A stretch of 64,000 nucleotides of DNA from Phycisphaerales bacterium (GTDB taxonomy: Bacteria; Planctomycetota; Phycisphaerae; Phycisphaerales; UBA1924), in contig JALHNL010000002.1 of assembly GCA_022843545.1 (NCBI GenBank), positions 47,992 to 111,991 of the forward strand, in the 5' to 3' direction. Positions within the stretch are counted from its first letter, which is position 1, and the number at the start of each line of letters is the position of its first letter. Position numbers and translations under genes: made by a program. Below the pieces are notes generated by a model that saw nothing but the letters and a program-made list of their open reading frames with translations, was not told the DNA's origin and did not search any database. Of this stretch, positions 1,494 to 51,102 are shown one piece after another.

Positions 1494-3719
1494 TCACTTC
1501 ATCTCGTCGGGCATCCACTCCGGCAGGTCGGCGATGGACCGGTGGGCCTCCTCGCTCGTGGGCACGCCCCACTTCTGGAAGAACGGCCCCAGGTTGCGCC
1601 CCGCGGCGCGGCTGAACCTCACCATCCACTGGTCGCGTTCCTGCTGCTCGCCGCGAGGCCGCTGATTCTGGGGCAGAGCGCGATACTCGGCGAACACCTT
1701 CTTGTACGTTTCCCAGCCGAACGCTTCCTGCAACTGCATGTACATCTCGAGCGCCAGGAACGGGTCGGACTTCCACTTCTCGAACGGCGCGCCCGCGGCC
1801 ATGTGCGTGCGCATCTTCTCAACGCGCTGCGAGCGGTCGTTCACCGCGTCGTGGCCCGTGCGCGGCGGTTTGCCGCAGACGGTCTCGGAGACGTACAGCG
1901 AGAAGAGGTTGCAGGTGACCTCGACCGTGCCGCTGAAGGTCCACATCGCGTCCTGATGGTTGTGCCCCATCTCGTGGAAGAGCCCCCAGTTGCCCGAGGC
2001 CAGTTTGGCCGCGATGACCATGTCGTCGGCGGCATCCAGGTGGGTCATGATGGGGTAGCCCGCGTGCATGTAGCCCGCGGAGATCTGCACATCGGCGACG
2101 TAGCGCTCGGGCCGCGCTCGCTCGCGCGGCATGGCCGCCAGATCGGCGCAGGCGTCCATCACGCGGTCCCAGAGTTCCAGCACGGGGCGAGGGTCGTCGA
2201 TATCCCGGACGTGCTCGCTGGGCACGGTCACGATGACCTTGGACGTGGCGAACTCAGCCCAGGGGCCCGGCGCGTTGCGAAGCCGGCTTCGCCACTCCGC
2301 GGGGTCGGTCTTTCCGAGCACGAAGAGCGGCGCCTCCACCGCGCCCTCAATGCGAACACTCACCTCGCCCTTCGACGGCTTCTCCACGCACACATACACC
2401 AGCCCGCCGAAGGGCGACGCGATCTCCATCTCCTCGTCGCCCGCGCCGGCGGTGACCTCCATCGGCCGACTCAGGGTAATCTCGGGCACACGGCTCCACG
2501 AGTCCTTGTGCCACAGGCGATCGGTGTGACTGCCGATCTGAACCCGCGCTGTGCCGGGCTTGATCGCGCCCCCCGCCGGCCAGGTCAGCCGCACCACCTC
2601 GCCCGGCGCGGCGTACAGCCCCAGGCTGTGCCAGCCCGGTGTGGACAGACTGATCGTGCGCTCCGCGGTGATGCGCGGGGCCTGGCTCGGGACCGCGCCC
2701 GGAAACTCCGCCGCTCGCGGGTCAGCCGCCACCTCAACCGGGGCGAGCGACGCCATGGACTCCACGGCGTACGTCACCAAAGCCCGCTCCGCCGGGCGGT
2801 TTGCCCGCAGCGGGGACTTGGCGCTGATCTTCACCGCGCTTAGCCGATCGCGCACCAGCCCGTCCAGCCGCGTGCGATAGACCATGTCGTCGGGCGGCAA
2901 GAGCCGCGTGCCCATCGCCACCGTAACGCCGGCCTGCGGATCGCGCGTGGCGCTGGCCTGTTCCTGCCCGGCGGGAGGAAACAGCGCATCCATCGCGCGG
3001 TCAAAGCGGAGCAACGCTCCCGGCGTTTCGGTCGCGTCAAATCGCTCGGGCAACTGCGGCGCAACGAAATCGTCCGTCCACGCGATCCCCGCTTCACGCA
3101 GCAGGATGCTCGGCTCATGCGTGCGCATGTCGGCCCCGCCGTTGATCTGCTGCCAACCCCACCCCGTCTGCGCGATGATCAGCCCGCCGCCCTCCTTCAC
3201 GAACTTCGCCACGCGCTCTCGAACGTCCGGGGGCATGGACGAACGCGCGGAGACCACCACGTCCACGCCGCTGAGGTCGGGCCACTTCGCCCCGGCCGCG
3301 CGGGCATCGCCATCATGCTGGTTCAGCCACTCGTGCGCGCGAGAGTCCACCGTCAGCACGCGCGGAGGCCGAATCCCCGCGCTGGCGCTGACTTTGACCG
3401 CCCCCGCCCACGCCACGGCGTTCAGAAGCAACCGCCCGGTGTCGCCCTGATCGAGCGTCGCCGGGTCGAGGTAGCCGCTGTGCCCCAGCGCCACCACTCG
3501 CCCGCGCCCCCAGGTGGAGGCGACCACCACCGCCGCCTTTGCGCTCCCGTCCATCTTGCCCACCACCACGGCCTCAGCCGGCGAAGCCAGCGCGATGACC
3601 GCACCGGGCGAGCCCGGCGCGGCGATCTGCTTCACACCCGCGAGCAGAGCCTCTCGCGGCTCGGCGGGCGGGGCGACGGTGAACACACAGACGACACACG
3701 CGGCGAGATAAGCGAGCAT
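1494..3719 (-). CDS. Peptidase M60-like (enhancin/TCAF-like) zinc metallopeptidase with N-terminal amidotransferase-like domain
   Basis: 741 aa with a short signal-like N-terminus. Has the HEMGHNHQ zincin motif typical of M60-like peptidases (HExxHxxQ). The N-terminal half has a GGGLIIAQTGWGWQQ segment like TCAF-type proteins. Confidence 0.7.
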   Translation of the reverse strand: MLAYLAACVVCVFTVAPPAEPREALLAGVKQIAAPGSPGAVIALASPAEAVVVGKMDGSAKAAVVVASTWGRGRVVALGHSGYLDPATLDQGDTGRLLLNAVAWAGAVKVSASAGIRPPRVLTVDSRAHEWLNQHDGDARAAGAKWPDLSGVDVVVSARSSMPPDVRERVAKFVKEGGGLIIAQTGWGWQQINGGADMRTHEPSILLREAGIAWTDDFVAPQLPERFDATETPGALLRFDRAMDALFPPAGQEQASATRDPQAGVTVAMGTRLLPPDDMVYRTRLDGLVRDRLSAVKISAKSPLRANRPAERALVTYAVESMASLAPVEVAADPRAAEFPGAVPSQAPRITAERTISLSTPGWHSLGLYAAPGEVVRLTWPAGGAIKPGTARVQIGSHTDRLWHKDSWSRVPEITLSRPMEVTAGAGDEEMEIASPFGGLVYVCVEKPSKGEVSVRIEGAVEAPLFVLGKTDPAEWRSRLRNAPGPWAEFATSKVIVTVPSEHVRDIDDPRPVLELWDRVMDACADLAAMPRERARPERYVADVQISAGYMHAGYPIMTHLDAADDMVIAAKLASGNWGLFHEMGHNHQDAMWTFSGTVEVTCNLFSLYVSETVCGKPPRTGHDAVNDRSQRVEKMRTHMAAGAPFEKWKSDPFLALEMYMQLQEAFGWETYKKVFAEYRALPQNQRPRGEQQERDQWMVRFSRAAGRNLGPFFQKWGVPTSEEAHRSIADLPEWMPDEMK

Positions 3720-3760
3720 CCGAGCAGTCTACCACGAGGCCCCGCCGGAGCAACACCGAT

Positions 3761-5752
3761 TCACATCCCCGGCAGGTGCTTCTCGACCCAGTCGTCCTGA
3801 CGGAGCGTCTCGGCGCGGAGTCGGCGGTCGCGGTTCTGGCTTGCGCCCTGGGCGAAGGCGAACAGCCTCAGCGTGGCCGCCCGCTTCCAGCCCGCGAGTT
3901 CGCCCGGCTCGTTGCAGGTCTTTTTGAGCGACGCAGCCGCGGTCTTGGCGTAGAGCGCCAGCAGCTCGTCCTCGAGGCTCAGGAACATCTGGGCCGAGCC
4001 GGGGTCACCCTGCCGCCCGGCGCGCCCGATGAACTGCCGATCAACACGTTTGGCGGCGTGCATCTCGGTGAGAATGACGTGAAGCCCGCCGGCCTGCCGC
4101 GCGTCTTTGTCCAGCTTGATGTCGGTCCCGCGGCCGGCCATGTTGGTGGCGACCACGATCCCCCCCGAGTGCCCGGCCTGCGCGATGATGCCGGCCTCGT
4201 CCTTGTCGAAGTTGGCGTTGAGGACCTTGTGGGGTAGCCGCCGGGCGGTCAGCCGCTCAGCCAGCGTCTGCGAGGCCTCGATGCTGCGCGTGCCGGCGAG
4301 GATCGGTCGCCCCTGCGCGTGCAGCGCGGCGACGCTCTCGGCGACCGCGTCCCACTTGGCGGCGGCGGACCCGAAGGCGCGGACGGGCCACGTCTCGCGG
4401 ATGACCGGGCGGTTGGTGGGGATCACCGTCACGCGGCGCTGGTACGTCTTCTCCATCTCCAGCGTCGCGTCGGCCGCGGTGCCGGTCATGCCGCACATCA
4501 CCGGATAGCTGCGGAAGAACCGCTGGAAGGACATGCGGGCGATGGTCTCGCGGTCGGCGGTGATCTCCAGCCCTTCCTTGGCCTCCACCGCCTGGTGCAG
4601 CCCGTGCTCCCACGAGCGGTCCGGGAGGAACCGGCCGGTGAACTCATCGACGATGACCACCCGCCCGTCGACGATCTGGTACTGCCGACCGTGGTGATAG
4701 CACGTGAGCGCGATGACGGCCTGGCGCACCAGTTCCTCGGCGCGACGAGTGGCCCGCCAGATCGGGTCCGCCCGCTGGACGAACATCGCGGCGCACTTGG
4801 CGCGGCCGGCGCGGGTGAGTTCCGCCTGCTTGCGGAGGGCGTCGACCGTGACGTCGGTGCGGACCTTCAGCTCGCGCGCCATGGCGGCGGCGTCGCGGTA
4901 GATCGCCGCCATCTCGTCGCTCTTGCGGCTCTGGGCGATAATCAGCGGCACCACCGCCTCGTCGATGAGCACCGCGTCGGCCTCGTCCACCATCGCGGCC
5001 CGCAGCCCCGGCACGATTGGCCCCTGGCTGGCGACGCCCTCGCCCCCCAGCATCCGCAGACCGCCCCACGCGCTGCGCAGCGCGCCCAGGCGGATCTGGT
5101 CGCGGAGCCAGTCCGCGACGATCTGCTTGGGCGTGCCGTAGACGATGGGGAGGGCGTAGACGCGAGCGCGCAGCGCGTGCTCCTGCTCCTGCTGGATCGC
5201 GCCCACCTGCAGCATGCAGCGCTCGTAAATGCCGCGTCGGCTGTCGGCGTCGCGCTTGGCGAGATAGTCATTGACGGTGAGGACGTGCAGGTGGCGATGC
5301 TCCCAGGCCAGGAGCGGGGCGGCGATGGAGCCGGTCAGCGTCTTGCCCTCGCCGGTCAGCATTTCGACGATGCGCCCGCGGTACAGGGCCATCGCCGCCA
5401 TGAGCTGCACGACGTACGCCTCTTCCCCGATCTCGCGCCGCGCGTGTTCACGCGTGATGGCCAGCGCCGCGCGGACCACGGCGTCGTCCTGCCGCCCGCG
5501 CAGGAAGGTCTCGCGCACCTCGGCCGTTCGGTCGGCAAGGGCCGCCTCGCCCAGCGACCGCAGACCCGGCGACAGTTCACGGTCGATGGCCTCCGCCTGC
5601 TTGCGGAGCCACGAGAGCGTGTAGCGACCCGTGCGCACCCTCACGCCCAGCCACGCGGCGAGCTTGTCGAGCCCCTTGAGCGGCAGCGGCTTCTTCTGCC
5701 GCGAACGCAACGACTCGAAGAGCGTCGCGTAGTTGGTCAGGGCCTGGCTCAC
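3761..5752 (-). CDS. SecA-like ATPase, truncated (NBD1-PPXD-NBD2 only; no HWD, two-helix finger or C-terminal tail)
   Basis: 663 aa. SecA signature blocks present: EMLTGEGKTL (Walker A), HVLTVNDYLAKRD, MVDEADAVLIDEAVVPLII, TNMAGRGTDIKL, GRAGRQGDPGS. Only 77 aa follow the last block. The GTG start overlaps the stop of the upstream M50 gene (GTGA). Confidence 0.85.
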   Translation of the reverse strand: MSQALTNYATLFESLRSRQKKPLPLKGLDKLAAWLGVRVRTGRYTLSWLRKQAEAIDRELSPGLRSLGEAALADRTAEVRETFLRGRQDDAVVRAALAITREHARREIGEEAYVVQLMAAMALYRGRIVEMLTGEGKTLTGSIAAPLLAWEHRHLHVLTVNDYLAKRDADSRRGIYERCMLQVGAIQQEQEHALRARVYALPIVYGTPKQIVADWLRDQIRLGALRSAWGGLRMLGGEGVASQGPIVPGLRAAMVDEADAVLIDEAVVPLIIAQSRKSDEMAAIYRDAAAMARELKVRTDVTVDALRKQAELTRAGRAKCAAMFVQRADPIWRATRRAEELVRQAVIALTCYHHGRQYQIVDGRVVIVDEFTGRFLPDRSWEHGLHQAVEAKEGLEITADRETIARMSFQRFFRSYPVMCGMTGTAADATLEMEKTYQRRVTVIPTNRPVIRETWPVRAFGSAAAKWDAVAESVAALHAQGRPILAGTRSIEASQTLAERLTARRLPHKVLNANFDKDEAGIIAQAGHSGGIVVATNMAGRGTDIKLDKDARQAGGLHVILTEMHAAKRVDRQFIGRAGRQGDPGSAQMFLSLEDELLALYAKTAAASLKKTCNEPGELAGWKRAATLRLFAFAQGASQNRDRRLRAETLRQDDWVEKHLPGM

Positions 5753-7941
5753 AGCGTGACCTTCCCTTGAACCGCCTTCTGCAGCATCTCCACCGCCTGG
5801 TGCAGGATCGGGCGGCTGGGCAGCGTGAAGCGGATGTAGACGCGCTGGCCCAGCGCCGCATCCGCAAGCTGCGCCGGATCGACATCCACATAGATCGTGA
5901 ACAGATCGGTGGTCGCGACGCGGTGCGAGCGGTCGTCGGGCATCGTGGCGATCTGCCCGCCGCCGGCGTGGCCCAGCGCCGCGTGCGGGAGGATCCGCTG
6001 CCCCGCGGGGATGGCCCGAAGCCCCGTGGCCTCGATCACCTGGTGCACACGCGACACCAACCGGGCCTGCACGCGGTACTCATCCGGGCTCATCTGGAAC
6101 AGCCAGCCCGAGTCGCCCTGGGGCACGCTCGCCGTGATGCGCCGCTGAGAGAGATCCGCCACCTGGCACACCGGCTCACCCGTGCGCTGGAACGCCCCCA
6201 GGAGGTCTCGCGGATTGGCGCCCACGATGGTCCCGTCGTGCGGCGCTCTCACCACCAGAGCCGCCTCGCGCCGCGCGATGTCGCTGAGCTGCTCCTCCAG
6301 CGCGGCAATCCCGCTCTGCGCCACCGCCGCGCCCGCCGGGTCGTCCTTCGAGAACGCCTCGGCGAGCTTGAGCCTGGCATCAGCGATGGAGGCGATAACG
6401 AACTGCCGCTCCGCGGAGAGTTCCGGGCTCGAGAGCGTGAGGATCGGCTCGTCCTTCTTCACGCTCTGCCCGAGGCGGACATGGACGTCGGAAACGAACC
6501 CGTCGGTGCCCTGGAAGACGCCGGTGATGAGCGGGCTGTCCACCACGCCCACGACGCGCCGGTAATCGGGCACGGGCACCAGCCCGATCAGAGCCGCCCC
6601 GACGGCCGCCAGACCCAGCGTGCCCAGGATCGCTCGGGTGCGATACTCGAGCAGTTGCGGGCTGGTGGCCAGCCAGTGGACGAACTTGCCGATGGGCAGG
6701 ATGAACCACATGGCCGCGGTCCACAGCGCCAGGAAGAGCCCGACGAAGAAGAAGATGCCCAGCACATACAGCGTGATGACGACGAACAGGAAGATGCGGT
6801 AGATCAGCGCCAGCACGCCGTAGGTGATCAGGATCGCCACCTCCCCCGGCTGGTTGCTGGGCGGGCGGGCCTGCTTGATGCGGTAGAAGTAGCGCTGGAA
6901 CAGATGCTGCAGCATCTTGTTGGAGCGCATCATGAGGTTGGGCACCTCGATGAGGTCCGAAAGGATGTAGTACCCGTCGAACCGCATGAGCGGGTTGGCG
7001 TTGAACACCACCGTGCTGATGCCCGAGGTGAGCATGACGTAGTACGAGATCTGCTTGGCGAACGAGCCGTCGGGCGAGGCCAGCCACACCAGCGCCGCGA
7101 TCGAGGCGGCGAACAGCTCGAACATCATGCCGCCCGCGCCCACCGCCACACGCTGCCACTTGTTCGGGAACGACCAGCAACTGGAAGCGTCCACGAAAGG
7201 CGAAGGGATGAGCACCAGCAGCATCGCGCCGAACTCGGGCACCTGCCCGCCGAAGCGGTGGCAGATGACGCCGTGCCCGGTCTCGTGCCAGAGTTTGAGC
7301 AGGATGTAGACCAGGATCATCCAGCCCCAGTTGGAGGGGCTGGTGACCGAGTCAAACTGCCCGACCAGGCGCGGCCACTCGGGGATGATCTGGACGAGCG
7401 CGAAGATCAACAGCCCCAGCCACGCCAGGAAGCCCCAGCGGTTGAGCACCGGCCGCAAGATCGGCTCGATGAAGTTCAGGATCGGCGTGGGGTTGAAGAG
7501 CCGCAGCTTGAAGTACATCAGGCCGATGGCCTGCTGCATCACACGCTTCCTCACGCGCTCACGCCCGCGGGTGAGCAGCTGCTCGGTCTCCGGCGAGGCA
7601 TCAGCCGACAGCAGGTTGCTGTTGTAGAGCTGCCCGAGCAGTTCGATGACCTCGTTCTGCGTGGGGGCCATGTCGCCGAACTTGGAAAGGCTGATCTTCC
7701 AGGCTTCCTCAACGGTGCGCGCGCCGTCGAGCAGCCCGATGAGGTCGTAGGCGATGGGCGAGAGGCGGTAGAACTGGTTGCTGGTCGGGTCGTGCGCGAC
7801 ATGCCAGCGCCGCCCGCGGTAGTGCTGCCGGGTGATCTGCACGTGCGGGCGAAGCCGGGGCTTCATCGCGCGGACACGGTGCCAGAACGGGCTGAAGGTG
7901 GGGCGTTCCATGAGAAAGAGAAGGCACTCGGCAGCGGGCAA
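5749..7941 (-). CDS. M50 (site-2 protease family) intramembrane metalloprotease with PqqD/RRE-like N-terminal module and HlyD-like C-terminal periplasmic module
   Basis: 730-aa ORF (alternative start at 7911, MERPTF). Has HETGH plus NANPLMRFDG, the M50 HExxH and NxxPxxxxDG motifs, and multiple TM helices. N-terminal FYRLSPIAYDLIGLLDGARTVEEAWKISLSKFGDMAPTQNEVIELLGQLYNSNLL resembles PqqD-family peptide-binding domains. The C-terminal approx 270 aa look like a barrel-sandwich plus coiled-coil adaptor. Confidence 0.8.
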   Translation of the reverse strand: MPAAECLLFLMERPTFSPFWHRVRAMKPRLRPHVQITRQHYRGRRWHVAHDPTSNQFYRLSPIAYDLIGLLDGARTVEEAWKISLSKFGDMAPTQNEVIELLGQLYNSNLLSADASPETEQLLTRGRERVRKRVMQQAIGLMYFKLRLFNPTPILNFIEPILRPVLNRWGFLAWLGLLIFALVQIIPEWPRLVGQFDSVTSPSNWGWMILVYILLKLWHETGHGVICHRFGGQVPEFGAMLLVLIPSPFVDASSCWSFPNKWQRVAVGAGGMMFELFAASIAALVWLASPDGSFAKQISYYVMLTSGISTVVFNANPLMRFDGYYILSDLIEVPNLMMRSNKMLQHLFQRYFYRIKQARPPSNQPGEVAILITYGVLALIYRIFLFVVITLYVLGIFFFVGLFLALWTAAMWFILPIGKFVHWLATSPQLLEYRTRAILGTLGLAAVGAALIGLVPVPDYRRVVGVVDSPLITGVFQGTDGFVSDVHVRLGQSVKKDEPILTLSSPELSAERQFVIASIADARLKLAEAFSKDDPAGAAVAQSGIAALEEQLSDIARREAALVVRAPHDGTIVGANPRDLLGAFQRTGEPVCQVADLSQRRITASVPQGDSGWLFQMSPDEYRVQARLVSRVHQVIEATGLRAIPAGQRILPHAALGHAGGGQIATMPDDRSHRVATTDLFTIYVDVDPAQLADAALGQRVYIRFTLPSRPILHQAVEMLQKAVQGKVTL

Positions 7942-7968
7942 TGGGCATCAGGTGAGAGACGCGGGACT

Positions 7969-7989
7969 CGGCCATCGGCCATCGCAGAA
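7969..7989. repeat. Heptamer tandem array CGGCCAT x2 followed by CGCAGAA
   Basis: Plus strand reads cggccatcggccatcgcagaa, 27 nt upstream (in transcript sense) of the M50 ORF start. About 20 of 24 positions match the element at 28812-28835 by my hand comparison. Confidence 0.8.
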
Positions 7990-8024
7990 AGGAAGAGATC
8001 GGGGACCACTCCGACGCGGGCGGG

Positions 8025-9983
8025 TCACCACAACCACAGACGAACAGTGTCGATGATCCTCCGCGTCCCGATCTCCAGGAGCGTGCGGCGGCCGGTGTCG
8101 AGGCTGACGCGGCCTTCCATGCCTGGGCGCATCCACGCGGCGGATTCATCGAGCTTGACGCGCACCTCGAAGAGGTTCTTGCCGTCCTTTGCCTCCGCGA
8201 GCGGCACGATCCGCTCGATGGTGACGGGGAACTCGGTGCCGGGGTGGCTGCGGGTCACGATCGCGCCCCTGCCGCCCTCCTTGATGAGGGCGACGTCGCT
8301 CTCATCCACGCGGACGACCGCGATCATCTCGGCGAGCGGCGCGATTTCGAAGAGCCCTTCGCCCAGCTTCACCGTCGAGCCCACGCGGTTCTTCAGGTCG
8401 CCCGAGATCAGCGTGCCGCCGATGGGCGCGACGATCTTCGTCCGCTCCAGCCGCGACTCCAGCAGCGCCAGCCGGGCGCGGGCCTGCTCGATCTGGGCCT
8501 CGGCCTTCTTGGCCTCGCCCGTGTTCTGCTGGGCGCGGGCCGTGTCCAGCGTCTTCTGCGCCACCAGCATCTGCGAGCGCGACTCCTCAGCCTGCAGGCG
8601 CAGTTCGCTGTCATCCAGTTCCGCGAGCAGCTGCCCGGCCTGGATCGACGCCCCGGGCTCGATGCCCGGCATCACCTTCTTGATCACCCCGTCAAAGGGC
8701 ATGGAGAGGGCCCGCTTCTCGCGGGGGCGCAGTTCGGCCCCGGCGCCGATGCGGTACTCCGCGGAGAAGACCGTCACGATGATCATCGCGACGATGAGCG
8801 CGACACCCGCCAGCTTCCACGCCGTGTGCTTCGGGCCCACCAGCCACGCCCCGGTCCACATCATCGAGTCCCACACCCGCAGCGGCAGGATGCGGTCGTC
8901 GGACCGGCGCACCCGCATCACGGGCGACACCAGGTCCATCGTCGCCTGCAGCAGTTCGACGGTCTTGAGGTCCACCCCCGGCGAGTCGGGCGTGGCGCGC
9001 GATTCGATGGTGATCACGCCCAGCACGTCCTCGCCCACGCGCATCGGGATCGAGCACACGTGCAGGTTCTTCTCGCCCGACGCCAGTTCCTTGTGCGCGT
9101 GGCTGATCGCTTGCGACAGCAGCACGTCCTGATCCGCCGGCGGCACCGGATGCACCACCGCCTGGTCCTGGTCCAGGCACTCGTCCATCGCCGCCTGCAT
9201 CTTCTGCACCATCGTCATCCGGCGGTCAAAGTGCTCGGTGTCGCTGATGGCCATGACGCGGACGCTGTTGCCCCTCAGCCAGCCCATCGCGACGCGGTCG
9301 GCGCCCAGGGTCTTGGCCAGGTCGTTCACGGTCTGGATCGCCGCGCCCTTGAACCCCTGCGCGGAGTTGATCGCGCCGATGAGCCGCGTGGCCAGGTCCA
9401 GCGCCCGCGTGCTCTGGGTGTTGCGCTTGAGTTCCTGACGCACCGCGTGCGTGTGCACGTAGCCCGCGATCACCTCCGCCATCGCCAGCGTGCTCTGGAT
9501 CGCCTGGCGCGAGCGCGGCTCGACCAGCAGCGTGATCGCGCCCGCGCTGCGCCCGCCCTCGCCCGGCAGCGCCAGCGAGAGCACATACCCCGCCCCGCTC
9601 GCCCCGTCGTACAGCTCGCTGGCGTCCTCCATCGCAAAGACGTGCGACGATGAACTCTCGAGCGCCGCCAGCGCGGCCCGCTTCACCTCGGGCAGGCTCT
9701 GGATCTGCGCCACGTCGGCCGGCCCGGGCGCCACGCCCGCCGCGGGCGGCGCCCCTACCGCTCCAGCGGGGAACATCGCGATGGGCATCGCCTCGCCCTC
9801 GCCGCCCTGACCGCCGCCCGAGGCGCTGATCGGGACGAAGAGCACCGCCTGGCGCGCGGCGGACACCAGCGTGAGGATCCGCAGCAGCCGGTCCATGAAC
9901 ACGCGGTCGTCGGGCGCGGAACTGGTGAGTTCCGCCACCACGCGCTGCCAGCCCGCCGCCTTCAGATGAGTCGCGTCAATCAC
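8025..9983 (-). CDS. GAF-like (tandem) - TM - HlyD-type membrane-fusion adaptor fusion protein
   Basis: 652 aa. The N-terminal approx 390 aa are cytoplasmic with GAF-like segments (LAKTLGADRVAMGWLRGNSVRVMAISD...VCSIPMRVGEDVLGVITIESRA). One TM helix (WKLAGVALIVAMIIVTVF) follows. Then a lipoyl-like, coiled-coil and beta-barrel pattern (IQAGQLLAELDDSELRLQ...IVAPIGGTLISGDL). Confidence 0.7.
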   Translation of the reverse strand: MIDATHLKAAGWQRVVAELTSSAPDDRVFMDRLLRILTLVSAARQAVLFVPISASGGGQGGEGEAMPIAMFPAGAVGAPPAAGVAPGPADVAQIQSLPEVKRAALAALESSSSHVFAMEDASELYDGASGAGYVLSLALPGEGGRSAGAITLLVEPRSRQAIQSTLAMAEVIAGYVHTHAVRQELKRNTQSTRALDLATRLIGAINSAQGFKGAAIQTVNDLAKTLGADRVAMGWLRGNSVRVMAISDTEHFDRRMTMVQKMQAAMDECLDQDQAVVHPVPPADQDVLLSQAISHAHKELASGEKNLHVCSIPMRVGEDVLGVITIESRATPDSPGVDLKTVELLQATMDLVSPVMRVRRSDDRILPLRVWDSMMWTGAWLVGPKHTAWKLAGVALIVAMIIVTVFSAEYRIGAGAELRPREKRALSMPFDGVIKKVMPGIEPGASIQAGQLLAELDDSELRLQAEESRSQMLVAQKTLDTARAQQNTGEAKKAEAQIEQARARLALLESRLERTKIVAPIGGTLISGDLKNRVGSTVKLGEGLFEIAPLAEMIAVVRVDESDVALIKEGGRGAIVTRSHPGTEFPVTIERIVPLAEAKDGKNLFEVRVKLDESAAWMRPGMEGRVSLDTGRRTLLEIGTRRIIDTVRLWLW

Positions 9984-10047
9984 TCGTCTTCTCCACCGTG
10001 CTCGTCGCCCCCGCCACCCCGCCGCCTACACGCCATCGCCGAGTCGA

Positions 10048-11052
10048 TCACTTCGCCGCCGCCGCGCTCTTGGGCGATTCGCCCTCGACCGGGGGCGAAA
10101 AGCGGACCCGCACCCGCACGCCCGCGGGCCACTCGCGCGGGTTGGGAGCCTCCACACGCACGCGCCGGCTGCCGCTGGTGTCCACCACGCGCGACACGTC
10201 CAGCACCTTCCCCTTCACCACCGCGTCGCTCTCGGGCGCGCCCGGCGCGTCGAACAGCACCCATGCCGAGTCGCCCGCCTTCAGCCCGCGGATCAGCGTC
10301 TCGTCCGTCGGCGTCGGCACGTCGATCCACACCGGATCGATGCTCACCACGCGCACCACCGGGCCCGCCTGCTCAAAGGCCTGCCCCACTTCGCACGCCA
10401 CCGCCTCCACCACGCCGTCAAACGGCGCTTCCAGCCGGTAGCGCTCCAGTTGCTTCTCGAGCTGAACCAGCCGCGCGGCCTCTTCCTTCATGTCGGACTT
10501 GGCGTTCGCCACCGCGGCCTCGGAGCTCTTCACCTGCGCCACGCGCTCGTCGATCTCCGACTGGTTCAGCGCGTCCTTCGCGAACGCCTCCTGCCCCGTG
10601 CGCAGCCGGATCCTCGCCAGTTCCAGCGACGCCTCCGCGTTCTTCACCGGCGCATCGTTCACCGAGCGAACACGCTGAACCTCGATGCTCGCCACCACCT
10701 CCGCGTCGCGACCGCGGATGAGCAGCTCGCCGCGCTTCACCCGCTGCCCCCCCACCACGCGCACCTCCTGGACCTCCATCGGGATGGTGAAGCCCATGAT
10801 GGCGTCTCGGCTCGGACGCGACACCCACTCAAAGCCCCCGAACGCACGCGCCTTGGACTCCCAGTCCTTGCTCGGCGGGATCGGAACAATCTGCGGGCTC
10901 AGAGCGGGGGCCGCGCCGGCGTAGCCGGGGGCCGACTCGCTCGACGCCGCCGGGCCGGGCTGCGCGATCGCCATCGCCCCCAGCGCCAGCCACGAACACA
11001 CGATGATCCACCCCGCTCGGGGTCCAGGCATTCGTCCGGTCATAGTCCGCAT
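10048..11052 (-). CDS. HlyD/RND-type periplasmic adaptor (membrane fusion protein)
   Basis: The ORF runs to 11235, but the plausible start is ATG 11052 (MRTMTGRMPGPRAGWIIVCSWLALGAMAIAQ signal-anchor). Has a lipoyl-like motif (VKRGELLIRGRDAEV), a coiled coil and a beta-barrel C-terminus. Confidence 0.7.
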   Translation of the reverse strand: MRTMTGRMPGPRAGWIIVCSWLALGAMAIAQPGPAASSESAPGYAGAAPALSPQIVPIPPSKDWESKARAFGGFEWVSRPSRDAIMGFTIPMEVQEVRVVGGQRVKRGELLIRGRDAEVVASIEVQRVRSVNDAPVKNAEASLELARIRLRTGQEAFAKDALNQSEIDERVAQVKSSEAAVANAKSDMKEEAARLVQLEKQLERYRLEAPFDGVVEAVACEVGQAFEQAGPVVRVVSIDPVWIDVPTPTDETLIRGLKAGDSAWVLFDAPGAPESDAVVKGKVLDVSRVVDTSGSRRVRVEAPNPREWPAGVRVRVRFSPPVEGESPKSAAAAK

Positions 11053-11256
11053 GATAGTGGTCTCACGCCCCCACACTCCGAGCGCACCCCCCAAGCTCAC
11101 CCCCGGCGCTCTCGACAACTTCCCTACGCGAGCGCCCGCCGCGCGGATCGGGCGACGTCGCGAACACGCCCGTCGGCAACCGGGAACCCGCGGACTTGAA
11201 CATACCTCTGCCGCCCGCCCCCTCCTATCCTCCATCCTCCCCTAGGAGCCCCCGAC

Positions 11257-12453
11257 ATGACGACCACTGCCACCAACCCGACCTCTTCCCGAACCCTGGC
11301 CATGAACGGCGGCACGCCCGTGAGCGCGACGCCCGTGCCCTTCATGCTCCCCGGGCTGGCCGAGGCGGACATCGAGGCGGCGGTGAAGGTCTTGAAGTCA
11401 GGCATGCTCCGCGCGGCCAAGAAGTGCGAGGAGCTCGAGACCCGCATGGGCCAGCTCTCCGGCGCCAAGCACGCCATGACCTGCGCCAACGGCACCTGCG
11501 CCCTCCAACTCGCCTATGAGCCGCTCCTGCAGCCCGGCGACGACGTGCTCGTCCCCGCCTGGTCCTACATCGCCACCGTCAGCATGATCGTCGCACGCGG
11601 GTGCAACCCCATCTTCGTCGACGCCGACCCCAAGACCGGCCAGATCGACCTCACCGACGCCGCCGGTCGCGTCACCGAGAACACCAAGGGCATCGCCGCG
11701 ACGCACATGTACGGCTGCCCCGTGGACATCGACGGCGTGCAGAGCCTCGCCCGCAGCCACGGCCTGAAGGTGATCTACGACGCGGCCCAGGCCCACCTCG
11801 CCACCTGGAAGGGCCAGGGCATCGGCGCGTTCGGCGACGCCGTCACGTATTCCTTCTACGCCACCAAGAACCTGCCCACCGGCGAGGGCGGGATGGTCAC
11901 CTGCAACAACGACGCGCTGGCACGCCAGATCAAGCTCCTGCGCAGCCACGGTGAAACCGAGAAGTACCTGCACGAGCAGGTCGGTTACAACTATCGCCTC
12001 AACGACATCGCCGGCGCGCTGGGCTGCTCGCGGCTCGACCGCCTGCAGAAGGAAACCGACGCGCGGCGCGCCGCCGCGGCCCGATACGGGCAACTGCTCG
12101 CGAACGTCAAGGGCATCACGCCGCTGGGCGTCACCCCCGGCGCGGTCAGCGCGTATCACCTGTACACGGTGACCTTCGACCCCAAGCAGTTCCGCTGCAC
12201 CCGCGACGAGTTCTGCAAGGCCCTGAACGCCGAGGGCGTGCCCACCGCCCTGCACTACCCGCGCTCGCTCCCGCAGCAGCCCGCCTTCGCCCGCTTCATC
12301 GACAACCAAAGGAACTCCTTCGGCGGCTGGCCCGTCGCAGAGCGCCTCGCGAGCACCGTTTTCAGCCTCCCCATGCACCACGGCCTCTCCGAGGCCCACT
12401 TCGCGGTCATGGCCGAAGCGATCGACAAGGTGGCAGCGGCCTACCGGGCCTGA
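11257..12453 (+). CDS. DegT/DnrJ/EryC1/StrS-family PLP-dependent sugar aminotransferase
   Basis: 398 aa. Family-typical blocks: AxTCANGTCALQLA, GDDVLVPAWSYIATV and YSFYATKNLPTGEGGMV (PLP lysine). Confidence 0.85.
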   Translation: MTTTATNPTSSRTLAMNGGTPVSATPVPFMLPGLAEADIEAAVKVLKSGMLRAAKKCEELETRMGQLSGAKHAMTCANGTCALQLAYEPLLQPGDDVLVPAWSYIATVSMIVARGCNPIFVDADPKTGQIDLTDAAGRVTENTKGIAATHMYGCPVDIDGVQSLARSHGLKVIYDAAQAHLATWKGQGIGAFGDAVTYSFYATKNLPTGEGGMVTCNNDALARQIKLLRSHGETEKYLHEQVGYNYRLNDIAGALGCSRLDRLQKETDARRAAAARYGQLLANVKGITPLGVTPGAVSAYHLYTVTFDPKQFRCTRDEFCKALNAEGVPTALHYPRSLPQQPAFARFIDNQRNSFGGWPVAERLASTVFSLPMHHGLSEAHFAVMAEAIDKVAAAYRA

Positions 12454-12560
12454 GTGTGGATTCCACGACAAGGTGTTCGATGGCACGGCGTCCCGCCTGT
12501 GTCCCCCGGCGATCCTGCGCGCAAATGCGAGCACCCCCGGCCCCCACTCTGAGAGAACGC

Positions 12561-12600
12561 CTCCGTCGCTCCACACTTCGTCACTTCGTCACTTCTCCCC
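12561..12600 (-). repeat. Octamer array (sense strand GAAGTGAC GAAGTGAC ...) just 3' of the MFS gene stop
   Basis: Plus strand reads ctccgtcgctccacacttcgtcacttcgtcacttctcccc with 8-nt period. On the minus strand it reads AGAAGTGACGAAGTGACGAAGTGTGG, directly downstream of the stop at 12608-12610. Confidence 0.8.
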
Positions 12601-12607
12601 AGCTCCA

Positions 12608-14158
12608 TCACTTCCCCGGCCAATGCTCCTTGGCCAGGATCGCGTCCACCAGCCCCGTGCGTGCGGCGGGCCGGCGCGGCATCCCGTCCACCTCCGGCGT
12701 GCGCTTGATGAGCATGAACACGCCGGCGACCATGAGCGGCACCGAAAGCACCAGCACCGCCGCCTGAGCGCCGTACCACGCCGCGTCGGCCTTGCCCAGG
12801 TCACTGACCAGCCGGGCCAGGACGATCTCGCCCACGAACCCGCCCAGCAGCACGCCCAGTGCGGTCGCCCCGAATGACGCGGTGTTGGCGATCGCCATCA
12901 CGCGCCCGCGCATCGCGTCGGGCACCAGGTTCTGCATCGCCGCCCACGTCTGGTTGAACGACCAGATCCAGAACACGCCCACCACGAACATGATCGGCCA
13001 GCCCAGCCAGAGCAGCGGGTTGAGCGCAAACGCGGTGATCGCCACGCCCAGACCCGAGAGCGCCATCGGGATGAAGTGGTGCTTGGGGTACCACGCGGGC
13101 AGCCAGCGCAGCGCGATCCCGCCGGTCACCGCGCCCACGCCCTGCACCGCCAGCAGCCACCCCACGATCGATTCGACTGAGGCCTTGCTCGCCCCGAAGG
13201 CGTCGAGTGTGAACTGCGAGAGCAGTCGCACCAGCGGCGCGGCGAACATGCTCGCCACCACCATCGCCAGAAACACCGCCAGCGGGCCGCGGTTGCGCGT
13301 CACAAACTGCCACGCCGACCACAACTGCGCCCGCGCCTTGCGACCATCTTGCGGGGGCGGGGGCGCCGCGGGCGTGCGCGACACCGCCAGCACCACGCCC
13401 AGAAATGTCAGCGTGTTGATCGCGAACAGGGGCGTGGGGCCCGCGGCGTGCATGAGCACCCCGCCCAGGGCCGGGCCCACCACCCGCGCCAGGTTGAACT
13501 GGATGCCGTTGAGCGTGATCGCCTTGGTGAGTTCTTCCCGCGGCACCAGCCGCGGCGTCAGCACCTGCCACGCCGGCATGTTGAACGACATGATCACCGC
13601 GTTGATCGCGCCCAGCCCGATGAGCACCCAGGGCAGCGTCCGCCCCTCGTGAGGCAACAGCGCGCTAGCCAGCGCCACGCACGCCGCCACGCCCATCAGC
13701 ATCACCTGCGTTACGATCAGCAGTTTGCGCCGGTCAACCCGGTCGGCGACCAGCCCGCCGAAGAGCCCCATGAGCAGGATGGGCAGCATCTGGGCCGCGC
13801 CCAGGTACGCCGCCATCTTCAGTTCGCCGGTGATCTTGGCCATCAGCAACTGGACGCCGACCAGTTCCATCCAGCTGCCCACGTTGCTCACAAACGCGGC
13901 GATCCACACGTTGCGGAAGTGCCCGTGCCGCAGAACGCTGCGCTGATACTCCGCCTTCACCGCGCCGACGATCTCGGAATAGCGCCCGCCCGCCGCGCCC
14001 CGCGCCCGCGGCATCGCCGACTGCGCGTCCGCCTCAAACGACGACGCCGCGCCCGTCGCGCTCAGCGAAGCGCGATCACCGTCCGCCTGCGCGTCGGCTT
14101 TGGGAGAGGTTGGCTGTTCAGAGGACACGATCCGGGCTCCGTCCCGCCTTCGTTCCAA
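12608..14158 (-). CDS. MFS transporter (EntS/MFS_3-like)
   Basis: 516-aa ORF with about 12 hydrophobic helices and an MFS motif-A-like GGLVADRVDRRKLL. The N-terminal 60-70 aa are low complexity, so the true start may be internal. Confidence 0.75.
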   Translation of the reverse strand: MERRRDGARIVSSEQPTSPKADAQADGDRASLSATGAASSFEADAQSAMPRARGAAGGRYSEIVGAVKAEYQRSVLRHGHFRNVWIAAFVSNVGSWMELVGVQLLMAKITGELKMAAYLGAAQMLPILLMGLFGGLVADRVDRRKLLIVTQVMLMGVAACVALASALLPHEGRTLPWVLIGLGAINAVIMSFNMPAWQVLTPRLVPREELTKAITLNGIQFNLARVVGPALGGVLMHAAGPTPLFAINTLTFLGVVLAVSRTPAAPPPPQDGRKARAQLWSAWQFVTRNRGPLAVFLAMVVASMFAAPLVRLLSQFTLDAFGASKASVESIVGWLLAVQGVGAVTGGIALRWLPAWYPKHHFIPMALSGLGVAITAFALNPLLWLGWPIMFVVGVFWIWSFNQTWAAMQNLVPDAMRGRVMAIANTASFGATALGVLLGGFVGEIVLARLVSDLGKADAAWYGAQAAVLVLSVPLMVAGVFMLIKRTPEVDGMPRRPAARTGLVDAILAKEHWPGK

Positions 14159-21256: not shown

Positions 21257-24124
<2,868 letters not shown>

Positions 24125-33015: not shown

Positions 33016-34401
33016 CTAGTACATGGACCGGGCGGACTGGATGCGCGGGCCGCGGCCCTCGTCACCCGAGAGGAACCCGGCGTAGTTGCGCATGAGCAGG
33101 TTGGCCTCGACACGCTGGATGAAGTCCAACACGACCGAGACCACGATGAGCAGGCCCGTGCCGCCCAGGAACTGGGTGACCATCATGTCCACGCCCATGG
33201 CGCGGCTGACGATCATGGGGAGCACGGCGATGGCGGCGAGGAAGGCGGCGCCGACGTAGGTGATGCGGTCCATCACCGCCTGGAGATAGTCACGGGTGCG
33301 GGGGCCGGGGCGCAGACCGGGGATGAACGCGCCCGTGTCGCGGAGCTGCTTGCTCATCTCCTCGGGGTTGAACTGCACGGTGATCCAGAAGTAGCTGAAG
33401 AAGTAGATCATCAGCACTTCGCAGAGGATGTAGGGGAACTCGCCGTAGGAGAACTGATTGTGCAGCCAGCTCACCACCGGGCCGGCGAACGTTTCCTGCG
33501 TCACCGAGTCGAGCATGCCGAAGATGGTGACGGGGAAGATCATCAGCGAGCTGGCGAAGACCACCGGCATGACGCCGGCGTGATTCAGGCGGAGGGGCAG
33601 GTAGGAGCGCTGCCCGCCGTAGACCTTGCGGCCGCGGGTGTGCTTGGCCTGCTGGATGGGGATGCGACGCTGAGCGACGGTGAGGAGCACCGCGCCCGCG
33701 ACGACCACCACGAAGCCGGCGACGAGCGAGAGCACGGCGGGCACGCCCAGCTTGGCCGGGTCGCTGGGGTCGAAGTTGCCGTACACGGTCTGGATGGCGC
33801 CGGGCATCTGCGAGAGGATGCCGGCCATGATGATCATGGAGATGCCGTTGCCGATGCCGAAGCGGTCGATCTGCTCACCGATCCACATGAGGAAGACGCA
33901 GCCGGCGGTGAGCGCGGCGATCGCCATGACCCACCACATGGGGTTGGTGGTGTACTCGGCGTAGAGAATGCCCTGGGAGTTGGCGATGCCCAGGTACGTC
34001 CAGCCCTGGAAGATGGAGAGGGCGATGGTGGCGTATCGGGTCCACTGCTGGATCTGCTGGCGACCGGTGGGCCCCTCCTCTTGGAGCTTCTTGAGCGCCG
34101 GGAGGACGGTCATGAGCAACTGGAAGATGATGCCCGCGGTGATGTATGGCATGACGCCCAGGCCGAAGATGGTGGAGTGGGAGAAAGACCCGCCCGACAT
34201 CATGGCCACGAACTGGCCGACAGCGGCGAGGGTGCCGCCTTCCTGCTGGGACTTGGCGAAGGTCTCGGCGATCTTGTCCTGGTTCACGCCCGGAAGGGGG
34301 ATCCAGTGGCCGATGCGGAACACCGCCAGCATAGCGATGGTGAAGAGGATCTTGTTCCGGAGTTCCGGGATCTTCCAGACATTGATGAACGCTTGGAGCA
34401 T
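33016..34401 (-). CDS. secY: Preprotein translocase subunit SecY
   Basis: 461 aa, polytopic, with KIPELRNKILFT and GISMIIMAGI. Sits between rplO and infA. Confidence 0.95.
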   Translation of the reverse strand: MLQAFINVWKIPELRNKILFTIAMLAVFRIGHWIPLPGVNQDKIAETFAKSQQEGGTLAAVGQFVAMMSGGSFSHSTIFGLGVMPYITAGIIFQLLMTVLPALKKLQEEGPTGRQQIQQWTRYATIALSIFQGWTYLGIANSQGILYAEYTTNPMWWVMAIAALTAGCVFLMWIGEQIDRFGIGNGISMIIMAGILSQMPGAIQTVYGNFDPSDPAKLGVPAVLSLVAGFVVVVAGAVLLTVAQRRIPIQQAKHTRGRKVYGGQRSYLPLRLNHAGVMPVVFASSLMIFPVTIFGMLDSVTQETFAGPVVSWLHNQFSYGEFPYILCEVLMIYFFSYFWITVQFNPEEMSKQLRDTGAFIPGLRPGPRTRDYLQAVMDRITYVGAAFLAAIAVLPMIVSRAMGVDMMVTQFLGGTGLLIVVSVVLDFIQRVEANLLMRNYAGFLSGDEGRGPRIQSARSMY

Positions 34402-49368: not shown

Positions 49369-51102
49369 TCACGCGAAGAACCGGTCGGCGCCGAGCACCA
49401 CCGAGGACAGATGCGAGAAGTCCGCGGGCTGGGAGCTCGCGTGGGCGAACGCCGAGAGGCTCAACTTGAGTTCGACCTTGGGCTGCGTGCCCTGATCCGA
49501 AGCCAGTTCGGCATCGCGGGCGCGGGCCGAGCGGACGTTGAAGCGGACCTGGACATTCTGGGCCTGCGACTGCGCGCCCGAGGGGTCCACGGCCTTGATG
49601 CTGAAGGCGGTGACGGTGCCGCTGCGGACCGGGGAGGTCCAGGTGAAATTCGTGCCCGGGGTGATGAGCACCTCGCCGCGGATGCGCTTGCCGTTGAGCA
49701 TGCCCACGCCGCGCTTGACGGTGAGCTGATAGGAGAGGGTGTCGCCGTCGGCGTCGAAGTCGCTCGCCGCGGCGTCGAGCACGGCGTGTGAGAAGACGAT
49801 GCGCTGGCTGCGCTGGTTGACGGCGATGGGGTCGACGCCGGTGAGCGTGGGCGCGTCGTTGATGTCGGGGTTGCCCGCGGGGGGCGGGTCGGCGGGCGGG
49901 TTGGCGGGGGGAGAAGGGTTGGCCGGCGCGCCCATGGCGGCGATCGCGGAGGCCATCGCGAGCATGTCCACCCGCTTGTACGAGGCGTTCGTGTTCACCA
50001 CGTTGTCGTTCTCGTCGTCGCCGTCCTGGATGACCGCGGCGGTGGTGGTGAGCACCTGGCGGAACTCGCTGACGGAGAGCTTGCGACCCAGGAACTGGAT
50101 CGCGACCTGCTGGGCGAGCACCGCCGCGCCGGCGATGATGGGCGAGGCCATCGACGTGCCGGCCATGCTGACGAAGCCCGAGCCCGACTTGGCGGCGCCG
50201 GAGAGGAACGCGCCGGGGGCGAAGATGTCCATGTTCGAGGATCGCTGCGAGAAGGGCGCGATCACGTTGGGCGCGCTGGAGTGCGCCGTGGAGTTGCTGA
50301 AGCCCACCGGGCCGTAGTTCGCCGCGAAGGTGGCCCCCACCGCGATGGTGTTGGGGTCGGCGGCGGGATAGGCCAGGCCCGGGGTGTTGAACGAGCCGTA
50401 CGAATTGCCCGCGGCGGCGGCGACGATCACGCCCATGCCGGCCAGGGCGGAGAGTTCATCGGCGAGCCCGAATCGACCGGCGCGGGTGGTGTAGTTGCCG
50501 CCGTCGCCCAGAGACATGTTCACCGAGGCGATGTTGTACGCGGCGGCGTTGGCGACGCACCACTGGAGCGCGGCCTCGATGGCGGCGAAGGAGCCCGCGC
50601 CGCTGTTGTCCAGCACCTTGAGCGCGATGATGTTTGCGCCCGGAGCCACGCCGGGGAAGGACGAACCGCCGCCCGCGACGAGGCTGGCGACGTGCGAGCC
50701 GTGACCATGGGCGTCGCCGGCGAGTGCCGCGCCGGAGGTGAAGTCGCGCTGGAAGACGATGCGATCGGCGATGCCGTTGGCGTTGGCGTCGGGCCCGAAG
50801 ACGGGGTGGCTGCTGTTGATGCCGGTGTCGATGATGACCGTCGAGAAGCCCTGCCCGATCATGTTCCCGAAGCGGGCGTCGGCGCGGAAGCCGCCCAGGT
50901 TGATGGCGGTGTGGGCGGCGATGCCCGAACTCCCGCCGGCGGACACGATGATCGGCGGCAGCGAGGCGACGGCGCTGGACGCGGTGGTCGTCAGCCCGCC
51001 CATGAGATCGCTGACCGAAGCGACGGCCAGCAGCGCGCGGGGTTCGAGCGCCTCGAAGGCCTCGGGGGGCGTGCCTGGCTGACGGGCGATGAACTTGGGC
51101 AC
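49369..51102 (-). CDS. Subtilisin-like (S8) serine protease with cadherin-like C-terminal domain
   Basis: Has VIIDTGINSSHPVF (Asp), HGHGSHVASLVAG (His) and GTSMASPIIAGAAVL (Ser). The C-terminus has DINDAPTLTG...DADGDTLSY. The N-terminus reads FEALEPRALLA. Confidence 0.85.
   Translation of the reverse strand: MPKFIARQPGTPPEAFEALEPRALLAVASVSDLMGGLTTTASSAVASLPPIIVSAGGSSGIAAHTAINLGGFRADARFGNMIGQGFSTVIIDTGINSSHPVFGPDANANGIADRIVFQRDFTSGAALAGDAHGHGSHVASLVAGGGSSFPGVAPGANIIALKVLDNSGAGSFAAIEAALQWCVANAAAYNIASVNMSLGDGGNYTTRAGRFGLADELSALAGMGVIVAAAAGNSYGSFNTPGLAYPAADPNTIAVGATFAANYGPVGFSNSTAHSSAPNVIAPFSQRSSNMDIFAPGAFLSGAAKSGSGFVSMAGTSMASPIIAGAAVLAQQVAIQFLGRKLSVSEFRQVLTTTAAVIQDGDDENDNVVNTNASYKRVDMLAMASAIAAMGAPANPSPPANPPADPPPAGNPDINDAPTLTGVDPIAVNQRSQRIVFSHAVLDAAASDFDADGDTLSYQLTVKRGVGMLNGKRIRGEVLITPGTNFTWTSPVRSGTVTAFSIKAVDPSGAQSQAQNVQVRFNVRSARARDAELASDQGTQPKVELKLSLSAFAHASSQPADFSHLSSVVLGADRFFA

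Follow-up and report, generated by a model that had tools for sequence, protein, structure and literature searches.

Secondary SecA_DEAD proteins without wing and scaffold have been described from a conserved locus in several phyla, where they are accompanied by proteins of the types Peptidase_M50/HlyD, GAF/HlyD and HlyD/biotin-lipoyl and, in some cases, by an OEP gene (Kamneva, Poudel & Ward, PLoS One 2015, PMC4452313). A function related to type I secretion systems (T1SS) was proposed there, with the SecA paralog as ATPase and the M50 protein as possible membrane pore. A literature search found no later characterisation of this module, either experimental or computational. Here we describe an operon of this kind in a stretch of 64,000 nucleotides from a Phycisphaerales bacterium (contig JALHNL010000002.1 of assembly GCA_022843545.1; the whole stretch is called the window in the following), together with a candidate signal for the proteins it might export. 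The operon is a further member of the published module, as it agrees with the 2015 locus in the four protein types, in overlapping phyla including the Planctomycetes, in an occasional OEP gene and in the T1SS-like proposal, and nothing essential differs. The original prediction for the window, made from its sequence alone, knew of no characterised system of this composition and has to be corrected here, since the same locus had been reported by Kamneva et al. (PMC4452313), with its function unassigned. A PqqD-like module, DUF3467, SapC, giant neighbours and a cargo signal are not mentioned in that paper.

Among other described systems, T1SS for substrates with an N-terminal leader (bacteriocin exporters of the ATP-binding cassette (ABC) type with a C39 peptidase) resemble the module in the proposed N-terminal leader, in a leader peptidase borne on the inner membrane, in membrane fusion proteins (MFPs) and, in relatives of the window locus, in a TolC-type factor. 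They combine an ABC transporter, a C39 cysteine protease and one adaptor, whereas the module combines a SecA paralog, an M50 metalloprotease with a recognition element (RRE) as known from ribosomally synthesised and post-translationally modified peptides (RiPPs), and three adaptors. LapA- and SiiE-type T1SS have a giant adhesin-like cargo gene beside the machine, as do relatives of the module. Giant proteins of Omnitrophota and Actinobacteria embed SecA DEAD and PPXD domains without scaffold or wing, for which an aid to self-export was proposed (bioRxiv 10.1101/2023.11.21.568195). Like the module, they tie a scaffold-less SecA to giant and probably surface-exposed proteins, a similarity by description only; their SecA-like domain lies inside the giant, whereas the module has a separate 660-aa protein in an M50/MFP operon.

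The N-terminal motif Planc_extracel or LEPR-XLL has been known since 2004 and is found on planctomycete surface proteins as well as on many of the largest bacterial proteins. It has been summarised as RRLxxExLExRxLLA and was reported for 52 proteins of Tuwongella, among them 8 of the 10 longest (4,016-10,566 aa); it is seen as an orphan export signal with an enrichment among the longest proteins of planctomycetes, and no export machinery was named for it (Mahajan et al. 2021, PMC8567305). No paper joining the motif to the SecA-like module was found in the literature search. From the gene neighbourhoods presented below we suggest, with a probability of about 0.55, that the operon encodes a T1SS-like machine for export and leader cleavage of LEPR-XLL proteins, in which the SecA paralog would replace the ABC transporter as motor.

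The operon comprises the following genes:

10048..11052, minus strand: HlyD1, an MFP (periplasmic adaptor) of 334 aa; Pfam HlyD_D23 and HlyD_3; NCBIfam RND_mfp 1.4e-25
8025..9983, minus strand: GAF-TM-HlyD adaptor with one transmembrane (TM) helix, 652 aa; Pfam GAF 5.8e-8, HlyD_3 4.8e-15, HlyD_D23 ~4e-15
5749..7911, minus strand: RRE(PqqD)-M50-MFP fusion (M50 fusion), 720 aa; Pfam PqqD, HlyD_D23, HlyD_3 and weak Peptidase_M50
3761..5752, minus strand: short SecA paralog, 663 aa; Pfam SecA_DEAD 3.5e-78, SecA_PP_bind 5.7e-23, P-loop_SecA 3.5e-51

Searches with Pfam and NCBIfam bore out the predicted set of four co-directional minus-strand genes and their domains, and the coding composition of the four open reading frames (ORFs) in the region 3761-11235 is strong (GC content at third codon positions 0.87-0.94). 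The start of the M50 gene had been placed at TTG 7941; ATG 7911 is more likely and gives 720 aa, in agreement with homologues of 720-727 aa. The HlyD1 frame is extendable to 11235, and the ATG at 11052 suits homologue lengths of 320-351 aa. A hydropathy plot places the N-terminal signal or anchor helix of HlyD1 at aa 13-31. In GAF-TM-HlyD, the N-terminal region is cytoplasmic and holds a GAF domain (aa 217-353, 8925-9335), followed by the TM helix (aa 391-409, 8757-8813, from hydropathy) and a periplasmic MFP module (8028-8756), for which RND_mfp of NCBIfam gave 4e-27, slightly over its cutoff; of the tandem GAF region of the original prediction, only this one domain was detected. The stop codon of the M50 fusion overlaps the GTG start of the short SecA gene by 4 nt (GTGA), and the remaining gaps between the operon genes measure 64-83 nt. 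The overlap, from which co-translation had been deduced, is real, but it is replaced by a 25-nt gap at locus L001 and, not being conserved, indicates only possible translational coupling. No ABC transporter or other pump is encoded inside the operon.

In the M50 fusion, at about aa 20-100 (7612-7854), an RRE-like module of the beta3-alpha3 type is recognised by Pfam PqqD with 27.7 bits (gathering cutoff 23.4; 3.4e-6), the protease signatures are HETGH (aa 209-213, 7273-7287) and NANPLMRFDG (aa 304-313, 6973-7002), and the periplasmic adaptor module covers aa 446-720 (5752-6576; HlyD_D23 3.9e-11). The AlphaFold2 (AF2) model, with a mean predicted local distance difference test score of 81, shows the beta-beta-beta-alpha-alpha-alpha order of the RRE/PqqD topology at aa 25-97; about seven membrane helices follow (aa 158-444), the second of which contains HExxH, and the C-terminal domain has a helical hairpin at aa 496-550. 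Foldseek found this C-terminal domain to resemble MacA, MexA and AcrA (~E 1e-11); as the search with the whole fusion was dominated by the adaptor domain, the RRE and M50 cores are without independent structural confirmation. With the odd number of helices in the model, the RRE would face the cytoplasm and the adaptor the periplasm. Among 83 homologues, HE.GH, FN.NPL..FDGY and several N-terminal Arg and Trp residues show conservation of at least 95%.

In NCBIfam, the M50 fusion comes closest to the daptide intramembrane metalloprotease (daptide_HExxH, NF041824; 1.3e-48), with an alignment spanning 362 of 379 profile positions, and its homologues carry the label 'PqqD family peptide modification chaperone' from the Prokaryotic Genome Annotation Pipeline (PGAP). 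The RRE-M50 peptidases of RiPP pathways (daptide MpaP, NF041824; YydH/LiaK) share with it a PqqD/RRE module followed by a polytopic HExxH/NPDG protease, and a similar role in the window would be maturation of a small ribosomal peptide, as by MpaP or YydH, with the adaptors exporting the product. However, the score of 166 is far under the family cutoff of 300 (NF058609: 30 against 225), precursor and modifying-enzyme genes are missing and would find no space in intergenic gaps of 41-83 nt, and no such family recurs among the neighbours of related loci, where giant proteins recur instead. Considering also the extra C-terminal adaptor, the likely large-protein substrates and a SecA-type polypeptide motor that a small peptide would not need, a RiPP system is very unlikely.

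The short SecA keeps NBD1, PPXD (aa 282-390, 4583-4909), NBD2 and one terminal helix, and its ATPase motifs are intact: TGEGKTL as Walker A (aa 133-139, 5336-5356), VDEAD, GMTGT, TNMAGRGTDI and GRAGRQGDPG. It aligns with residues 15-553 only of Bacillus subtilis SecA (E 1.7e-112) and reaches at most about residue 610 of Clostridioides difficile SecA2. Pfam detected no SecA_SW (wing/scaffold) domain in it, and the AF2 model ends as a single long helix (622-659). Since both alignment and model stop early, the protein is, judged by what is known of SecA structures, a SecA without helical wing, two-helix finger/IRA1, most of the scaffold and the C-terminal (Zn/SecB) tail. In SecA-SecY structures, wing, two-helix finger/IRA1 and scaffold are the parts that contact and insert into SecY. 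That the truncation might be a mis-call was dispelled by 61 cross-phylum homologues from genome loci with lengths of 614-676 aa, in which Walker A, DEAD, GMTGT, TNMAGRGTDI and GR..RQGDPG are each at least 95% conserved. A full-library HMMER search with the short SecA gave over 150 distinct clusters at 50% identity, with lengths of 640-690 aa in nearly all of them. From these sequences, the short SecA is catalytically competent, and its shortness is a stable family trait.

Residues 1-45 form a clade-conserved extension ahead of the SecA-aligning region and have low AF2 confidence; Y8, G27, D29, L49 and R50 of the N-terminus are invariant in 26 close homologues, and the extension might be a docking element for membrane partners. 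PGAP and RefSeq names of the short SecA vary between 'prepilin peptidase', 'DEAD/DEAH box helicase', 'preprotein translocase subunit SecA' and 'hypothetical protein', as seen for proteins of ~640-675 aa at five loci (L003:8782-10806; L005:8887-10803; L004:8905-10866; L090:11719-13704; L092:11878-13884). As these proteins align over their full length with the short SecA of the window, 'prepilin peptidase' is a misannotation, and the present naming of this component of the module is inconsistent.

Canonical SecA and the SecA2 of Gram-positive bacteria and mycobacteria share NBD1, PPXD, NBD2 and all ATPase motifs with the short SecA. With PPXD and both NBDs kept, with a SecY encoded in the window and with the short SecA clade placed beside actinobacterial SecA2 by Kamneva et al. 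(PMC4452313), an accessory Sec route may be considered, in which a SecA2-like short SecA feeds a subset of proteins, possibly those with LEPR-XLL, to SecYEG, the M50 fusion acts as signal peptidase and the adaptors form only the leg from periplasm to outer membrane. The short SecA stops after the first scaffold helix, however, and so is without the SecY-contacting parts. It also scores under the cutoff of every NCBIfam equivalog, both for SecA (NF009538, 509 against 814; TIGR00963, 506 against 800) and for SecA2 (TIGR03714, 398/930; TIGR04221, 385/725; TIGR04397, 464/1085; NF012136, 351/1100; score/cutoff). Moreover, the partners of the canonical proteins are SecYEG, SecY2 and Asp, whereas the tight and near-universal linkage of the short SecA is to M50 and MFP genes, and no SecY2 or Asp gene was present in the module neighbourhoods examined. 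An accessory Sec route is therefore unlikely.

To follow the module through other genomes, one genome per species was scanned with the M50 fusion alignment as query, and loci were counted over the best 80. The M50 fusion is present in at least 596 species. The best 80 loci cover Phycisphaerae and other Planctomycetota, Verrucomicrobiota, Lentisphaerae, Alpha-, Beta- and Gammaproteobacteria, Desulfobacterota, Myxococcota, Nitrospirota, Rokubacteria, Methylomirabilia, Acidobacteriota, Spirochaetota and one metagenome-assembled genome (MAG) of the Flavobacteriales. GAF-HlyD lies upstream of the M50 fusion in nearly all of them, and at 70 of the 76 loci with enough downstream sequence, in more than 10 phyla, the M50 fusion is followed by the short SecA gene, with or without an intervening SapC gene. 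The expected conservation of the neighbourhood across phyla was thus found, and with a common gene order recurring in 80 of 80 loci the arrangement is far beyond chance. The order HlyD1, GAF-HlyD, M50, SecA is that of the Phycisphaerales clade of the window (window, L001, L002, L009-L020), and the order elsewhere is (DUF3467), GAF-HlyD, M50, (SapC), SecA, HlyD1. In Alphaproteobacteria the module is carried on plasmids and chromids, with short SecA copies of 41-45% identity (tblastn of plasmids).

Clustering of all neighbouring ORFs gave DUF3467 (25 loci), TolC/OEP (about 10-11) and SapC (8) as recurrent families; an OEP/TolC gene also adjoins the module in Methylosinus, and no homologue of the three families is present in the 64-kb window. 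No ABC, resistance-nodulation-division (RND) or major facilitator superfamily (MFS) family recurred near the module in 85 loci, and the MFS_3 gene near the window operon has no counterpart in relatives. Of the pump and the outer channel, neither of which the original prediction saw encoded here, the pump does not recur in relatives either; an outer-membrane factor clearly belongs to the module in some lineages and, as a TolC-type gene is co-encoded there, the system looks tripartite like a T1SS and not free of an outer channel. Outer factors of T1SS are often encoded away from the rest of the system.

In many lineages the gene of the DUF3467 protein (~100-130 aa) separates the giant cargo gene from GAF-HlyD, for example at L004:3512-3817, L005:4409-4729, L090:7443-7724 and L023:1371-1835; the window and its close relatives are without it. 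Its position suggests a chaperone or adaptor; a SecB-like chaperone was considered, and the DUF3467 profile gave only a chance match to sequences of the PDB (E 0.22). The SapC-family gene stands between M50 fusion and short SecA, or nearby, mostly in Rhodobacterales (L003:7968-8789 and seven other loci; L093:1258-2055). SapC presumably owes its name to the S-layer type I secretion operon of Campylobacter fetus, which would fit a secretion context.

The same neighbourhoods bear on two other explanations. One is regulated intramembrane proteolysis, with GAF sensing a ligand and M50 cleaving a membrane regulator without any role in transport. Site-2 proteases classically function in signalling, a GAF domain is present, and in Methylobacterium it was only the GAF gene that was expressed (PMC4452313). 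Nevertheless, no anti-sigma factor, sigma factor or transcription factor recurs as a partner, and the three periplasmic adaptor modules, the adjacent TolC genes and the SecA-type motor would be left unexplained, so that we regard pure signalling as extremely unlikely. The other is an ordinary tripartite efflux pump, or the adaptors of a classical T1SS, with the ABC or RND pump encoded elsewhere and the SecA-like and M50 proteins accessory or unrelated. All three MFP folds are bona fide, and TolC genes adjoin some loci. On the other hand, one adaptor is covalently fused to the M50 domain and another to a GAF domain in every lineage, the short SecA gene is present in 92% of the evaluable loci while no pump family recurs, and constant co-encoding of a cognate pump together with TolC was not observed. 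Further evidence on both sides comes from the genes beside the module.

Outside the clade of the window, the immediate neighbours of the module are large or giant genes coding for up to ~12,900 aa. In every annotated alphaproteobacterial plasmid case it is found immediately downstream of the giant gene. The giants are as follows:

Pseudosulfitobacter: giant gene of 38.7 kb, PGAP name LEPR-XLL
Mesorhizobium ciceri: giant gene of 31.5 kb
Methylosinus: giant gene of 26.5 kb, then DUF3467, module and TolC
Pontibrevibacter (L090): giant gene of 31.8 kb, PGAP name LEPR-XLL, then DUF3467 and module
Alisedimentitalea: giant gene of 24.4 kb
Pseudohalocynthiibacter: ORF of at least 11,500 aa (at least 34 kb) across the origin of a 62-kb plasmid record

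All six giants have the motif; five N-termini were read directly, and that of Pontibrevibacter is assigned through its PGAP name LEPR-XLL. The N-termini read ..(F/L)E.LEPR.LLSAD.. after a basic, non-hydrophobic stretch. For Alisedimentitalea the motif was predicted before the sequence was read and sits just upstream of a mis-annotated ATG: on the A. scapharcae plasmid NZ_CP123586.1 the 24.4-kb 'calcium-binding protein' starts too far downstream, and the upstream frame (L093:926-1100) reads ..RRRFIRNSRASESRGKQAVVEQLEPRLLLAAD.., a LEPR-XLL leader. On the 62-kb plasmid pRR4-35_6 (NZ_CP049043.1) L094:8980-36084 joined to L092:1-7491 forms a single frame of at least 11,500 aa, which is missing from the gene table because it crosses the origin of the record; the plasmid consists essentially of replication and partition genes, the giant gene and the secretion module. 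The NCBIfam model NF012209 (LEPR-XLL, model LEPR-8K) gave 29-34 bits against a cutoff of 17 on the giants of Pseudosulfitobacter, Mesorhizobium ciceri and Methylosinus. Pfam PF07595 (Planc_extracel) recognises the same motif, scoring 27.7 bits for the N-terminus of one subtilase and 17 bits for the giant of Pseudosulfitobacter.

Beyond the plasmids, a co-directional ORF exceeding 1,000 aa ends right before the module in 17 of 68 loci outside the close Phycisphaerales clade (16 of these ORFs run off the 10-kb flank), and in several more loci such an ORF begins right after it. Nine flanking ORFs carry the motif in their first ~120 residues, among them a cadherin/Big_9/RTX protein of Nitrospira (1,574 aa) and an amidase/dockerin protein of Phycisphaera, and NF012209 scored over its cutoff on six of eight tested. 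The cargo N-termini are without a hydrophobic Sec signal. RTX repeats, which are typical of T1SS cargo, occur on some of the neighbouring giants and favour the ordinary pump or classical T1SS discussed above; against it stands the 62-kb plasmid, which holds essentially the giant gene and the module only. Together with the missing pump families and the fused adaptors, this makes an ordinary pump distinctly unlikely.

In the window itself, one protein has the motif:

49369..51102, minus strand: S8 subtilase with a Big_9/cadherin-like domain; Pfam Peptidase_S8 and Big_9; N-terminal 'AFEALEPRALLA', with LEPRALL at 51028-51048

Its N-terminus reads ..PPEAFEALEPRALLAVASV.. and is without TM or hydrophobic signal helix, and FEALEPRALLA fits the motif consensus literally. 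It is the sole motif-bearing ORF of the 64-kb window and the sole significant match of a custom LEPR hidden Markov model (E 0.0014); the N-terminus gave no match to NF012209 (17 bits) or PF07595 (25.5 bits) at E <= 1 or <= 10. Among 120 homologues, 25 have a strict LEPRxLL and many others, by eye, E.LE.R..L. In the homologues the motif stands at the same N-terminal position on an otherwise unconserved leader. By its leader, the S8 subtilase is a candidate cargo of the module and no more than that. The retention of the motif on the S8 homologues would mean that the planctomycetal signal tags many secreted enzymes of ordinary size and that the module would be a general pathway, not a device for one cargo. 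A second sequence, 'AEPREALLAG' of an M60 peptidase in the window, looks motif-like but was rejected as cargo, as its counterpart in M60 homologues with ordinary signal peptides is the N-terminal domain of the mature protein.

Taking the exporter for LEPR-XLL proteins as the preferred interpretation, export may proceed as follows. The cargo would be marked by a short non-hydrophobic N-terminus in which a basic stretch precedes (F/L)E.LEPR.LL(S/A), the LEPR-XLL or Planc_extracel motif, presumably acting in targeting. The cytoplasmic RRE/PqqD module of the M50 fusion would bind this leader, and the short SecA would bind the unfolded chain and, using ATP, feed it into a conduit made of, or built around, the ~7-TM M50 domain, whose intramembrane site (HExxH / NPDG) would take off the leader. 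The three adaptor modules (HlyD1, GAF-HlyD and the C-terminal part of the M50 fusion) could build a tube docking on a TolC-type channel, which is adjacent in some relatives and would be encoded elsewhere in the genome of the window; the cytoplasmic GAF region may serve as gate or scaffold. The originally predicted sequence of leader recognition by the RRE, cleavage by M50, drive by SecA and passage through the adaptors fits this scheme and gains, in LEPR-XLL on the neighbouring giants, a candidate leader. In Proteobacteria, Nitrospirota and other phyla the cargo would usually be one giant adhesin-like protein encoded next to the module, and in the Phycisphaerales lineage a stand-alone module would serve dispersed motif proteins such as the S8 subtilase at 49369-51102.

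Several points weigh against this interpretation. Its functional part rests on gene neighbourhood and domain content, and no module component is an established protein-conducting channel, which makes the inner-membrane conduit its weakest point. In Methylobacterium, the only case with cited expression data, the SecA, M50 and HlyD genes were barely expressed (PMC4452313). The only motif protein of the window is encoded 38 kb from the module and fails NF012209, and as no cargo gene adjoins the module in the clade of the window (window, L001, L002, L009-L020), the link is an extrapolation from lineages outside it. Furthermore, 6 of 76 loci are without an adjacent short SecA gene, and the RTX repeats on some giants make a classical C-terminal T1SS signal with a distant ABC transporter conceivable. 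For the wider claim we see about even chances: that the module is the missing export machinery of the Planc_extracel/LEPR-XLL signal, that is, a distinct, Sec-independent and TolC-coupled system of at least 596 species and more than 10 phyla, with a SecA paralog replacing the ABC transporter, an RRE-M50 receptor and leader peptidase, a duct of three adaptors and cargo from ordinary enzymes to giants of more than 10,000 aa.

Further genes of the window are:

1494..3719, minus strand: M60 (enhancin-like) metallopeptidase; Pfam Peptidase_M60 3.6e-80; Sec signal helix aa 1-19
11257..12453, plus strand: DegT/DnrJ/EryC1 sugar aminotransferase; Pfam 6.5e-100; divergent from the operon
33016..34401, minus strand: canonical secY; Pfam SecY 6.5e-103; within the ribosomal-protein cluster

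The M60 gene begins 41 nt downstream of the short SecA gene on the same strand and lies outside the conserved core. No terminator was detected between the two genes, which may be co-transcribed; a promoter and terminator scan of 1200-12700 gave nothing exceeding shuffled sequences. M60/enhancin-like peptidases with Sec signal peptides adjoin the module in three distant lineages, namely in the Phycisphaerales (window 1494-3719), in a Planctomycetaceae MAG (L073:5370-7811) and in a Verrucomicrobiota MAG (L061:14024-16318); this adjacency may be due to chance or to a tie with the processing of secreted glycoprotein cargo. A DegT homologue is found in the same position in 11 close loci (e.g. L001:3317-4504, L009:5511-6881) and is a conserved neighbour only within the Phycisphaerales clade of the window, where gene and operon may share the promoter region 11053-11256. 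From its secY, the source organism has an ordinary Sec translocon; no full-length secA is present within the 64-kb window. That a separate canonical SecA is encoded elsewhere would be in line with the plasmid and chromid location of the module in Alphaproteobacteria and with the uniform shortness of the family.

Across 18000-24000 of the window the GC skew changes sign, being about -0.15 over 1-20 kb and about +0.14 over 24-40 kb, with genes on either side mostly on the minus strand. A replication origin near 20 kb was considered for this sign change and rejected, as there is no DnaA-box cluster and the codon usage of the ribosomal operon can explain it; codon bias of this highly expressed operon is the likely cause. 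With 956 aa, the H+-pyrophosphatase at 21257-24127 is of unusual length, and the Pfam profile of 645 positions is stretched over its residues 82-910. A NuoD-like protein at 24902-26368 (488 aa) has an N-terminal extension of ~200 aa and is possibly a NuoC-D fusion.

What is new here is a specific cargo hypothesis that unites two orphan observations, the locus of secondary SecA, M50 and HlyD proteins described in 2015 and the LEPR-XLL signal without assigned translocon. It is directly testable in culturable carriers, namely Methylobacterium extorquens AM1, the rhizobial and roseobacter plasmids and Planctopirus. If it is true, tripartite secretion would be powered in a new way, with a SecA-type polypeptide motor in place of the ABC transporter, and the route to the surface would be explained for some of the megadalton adhesins.

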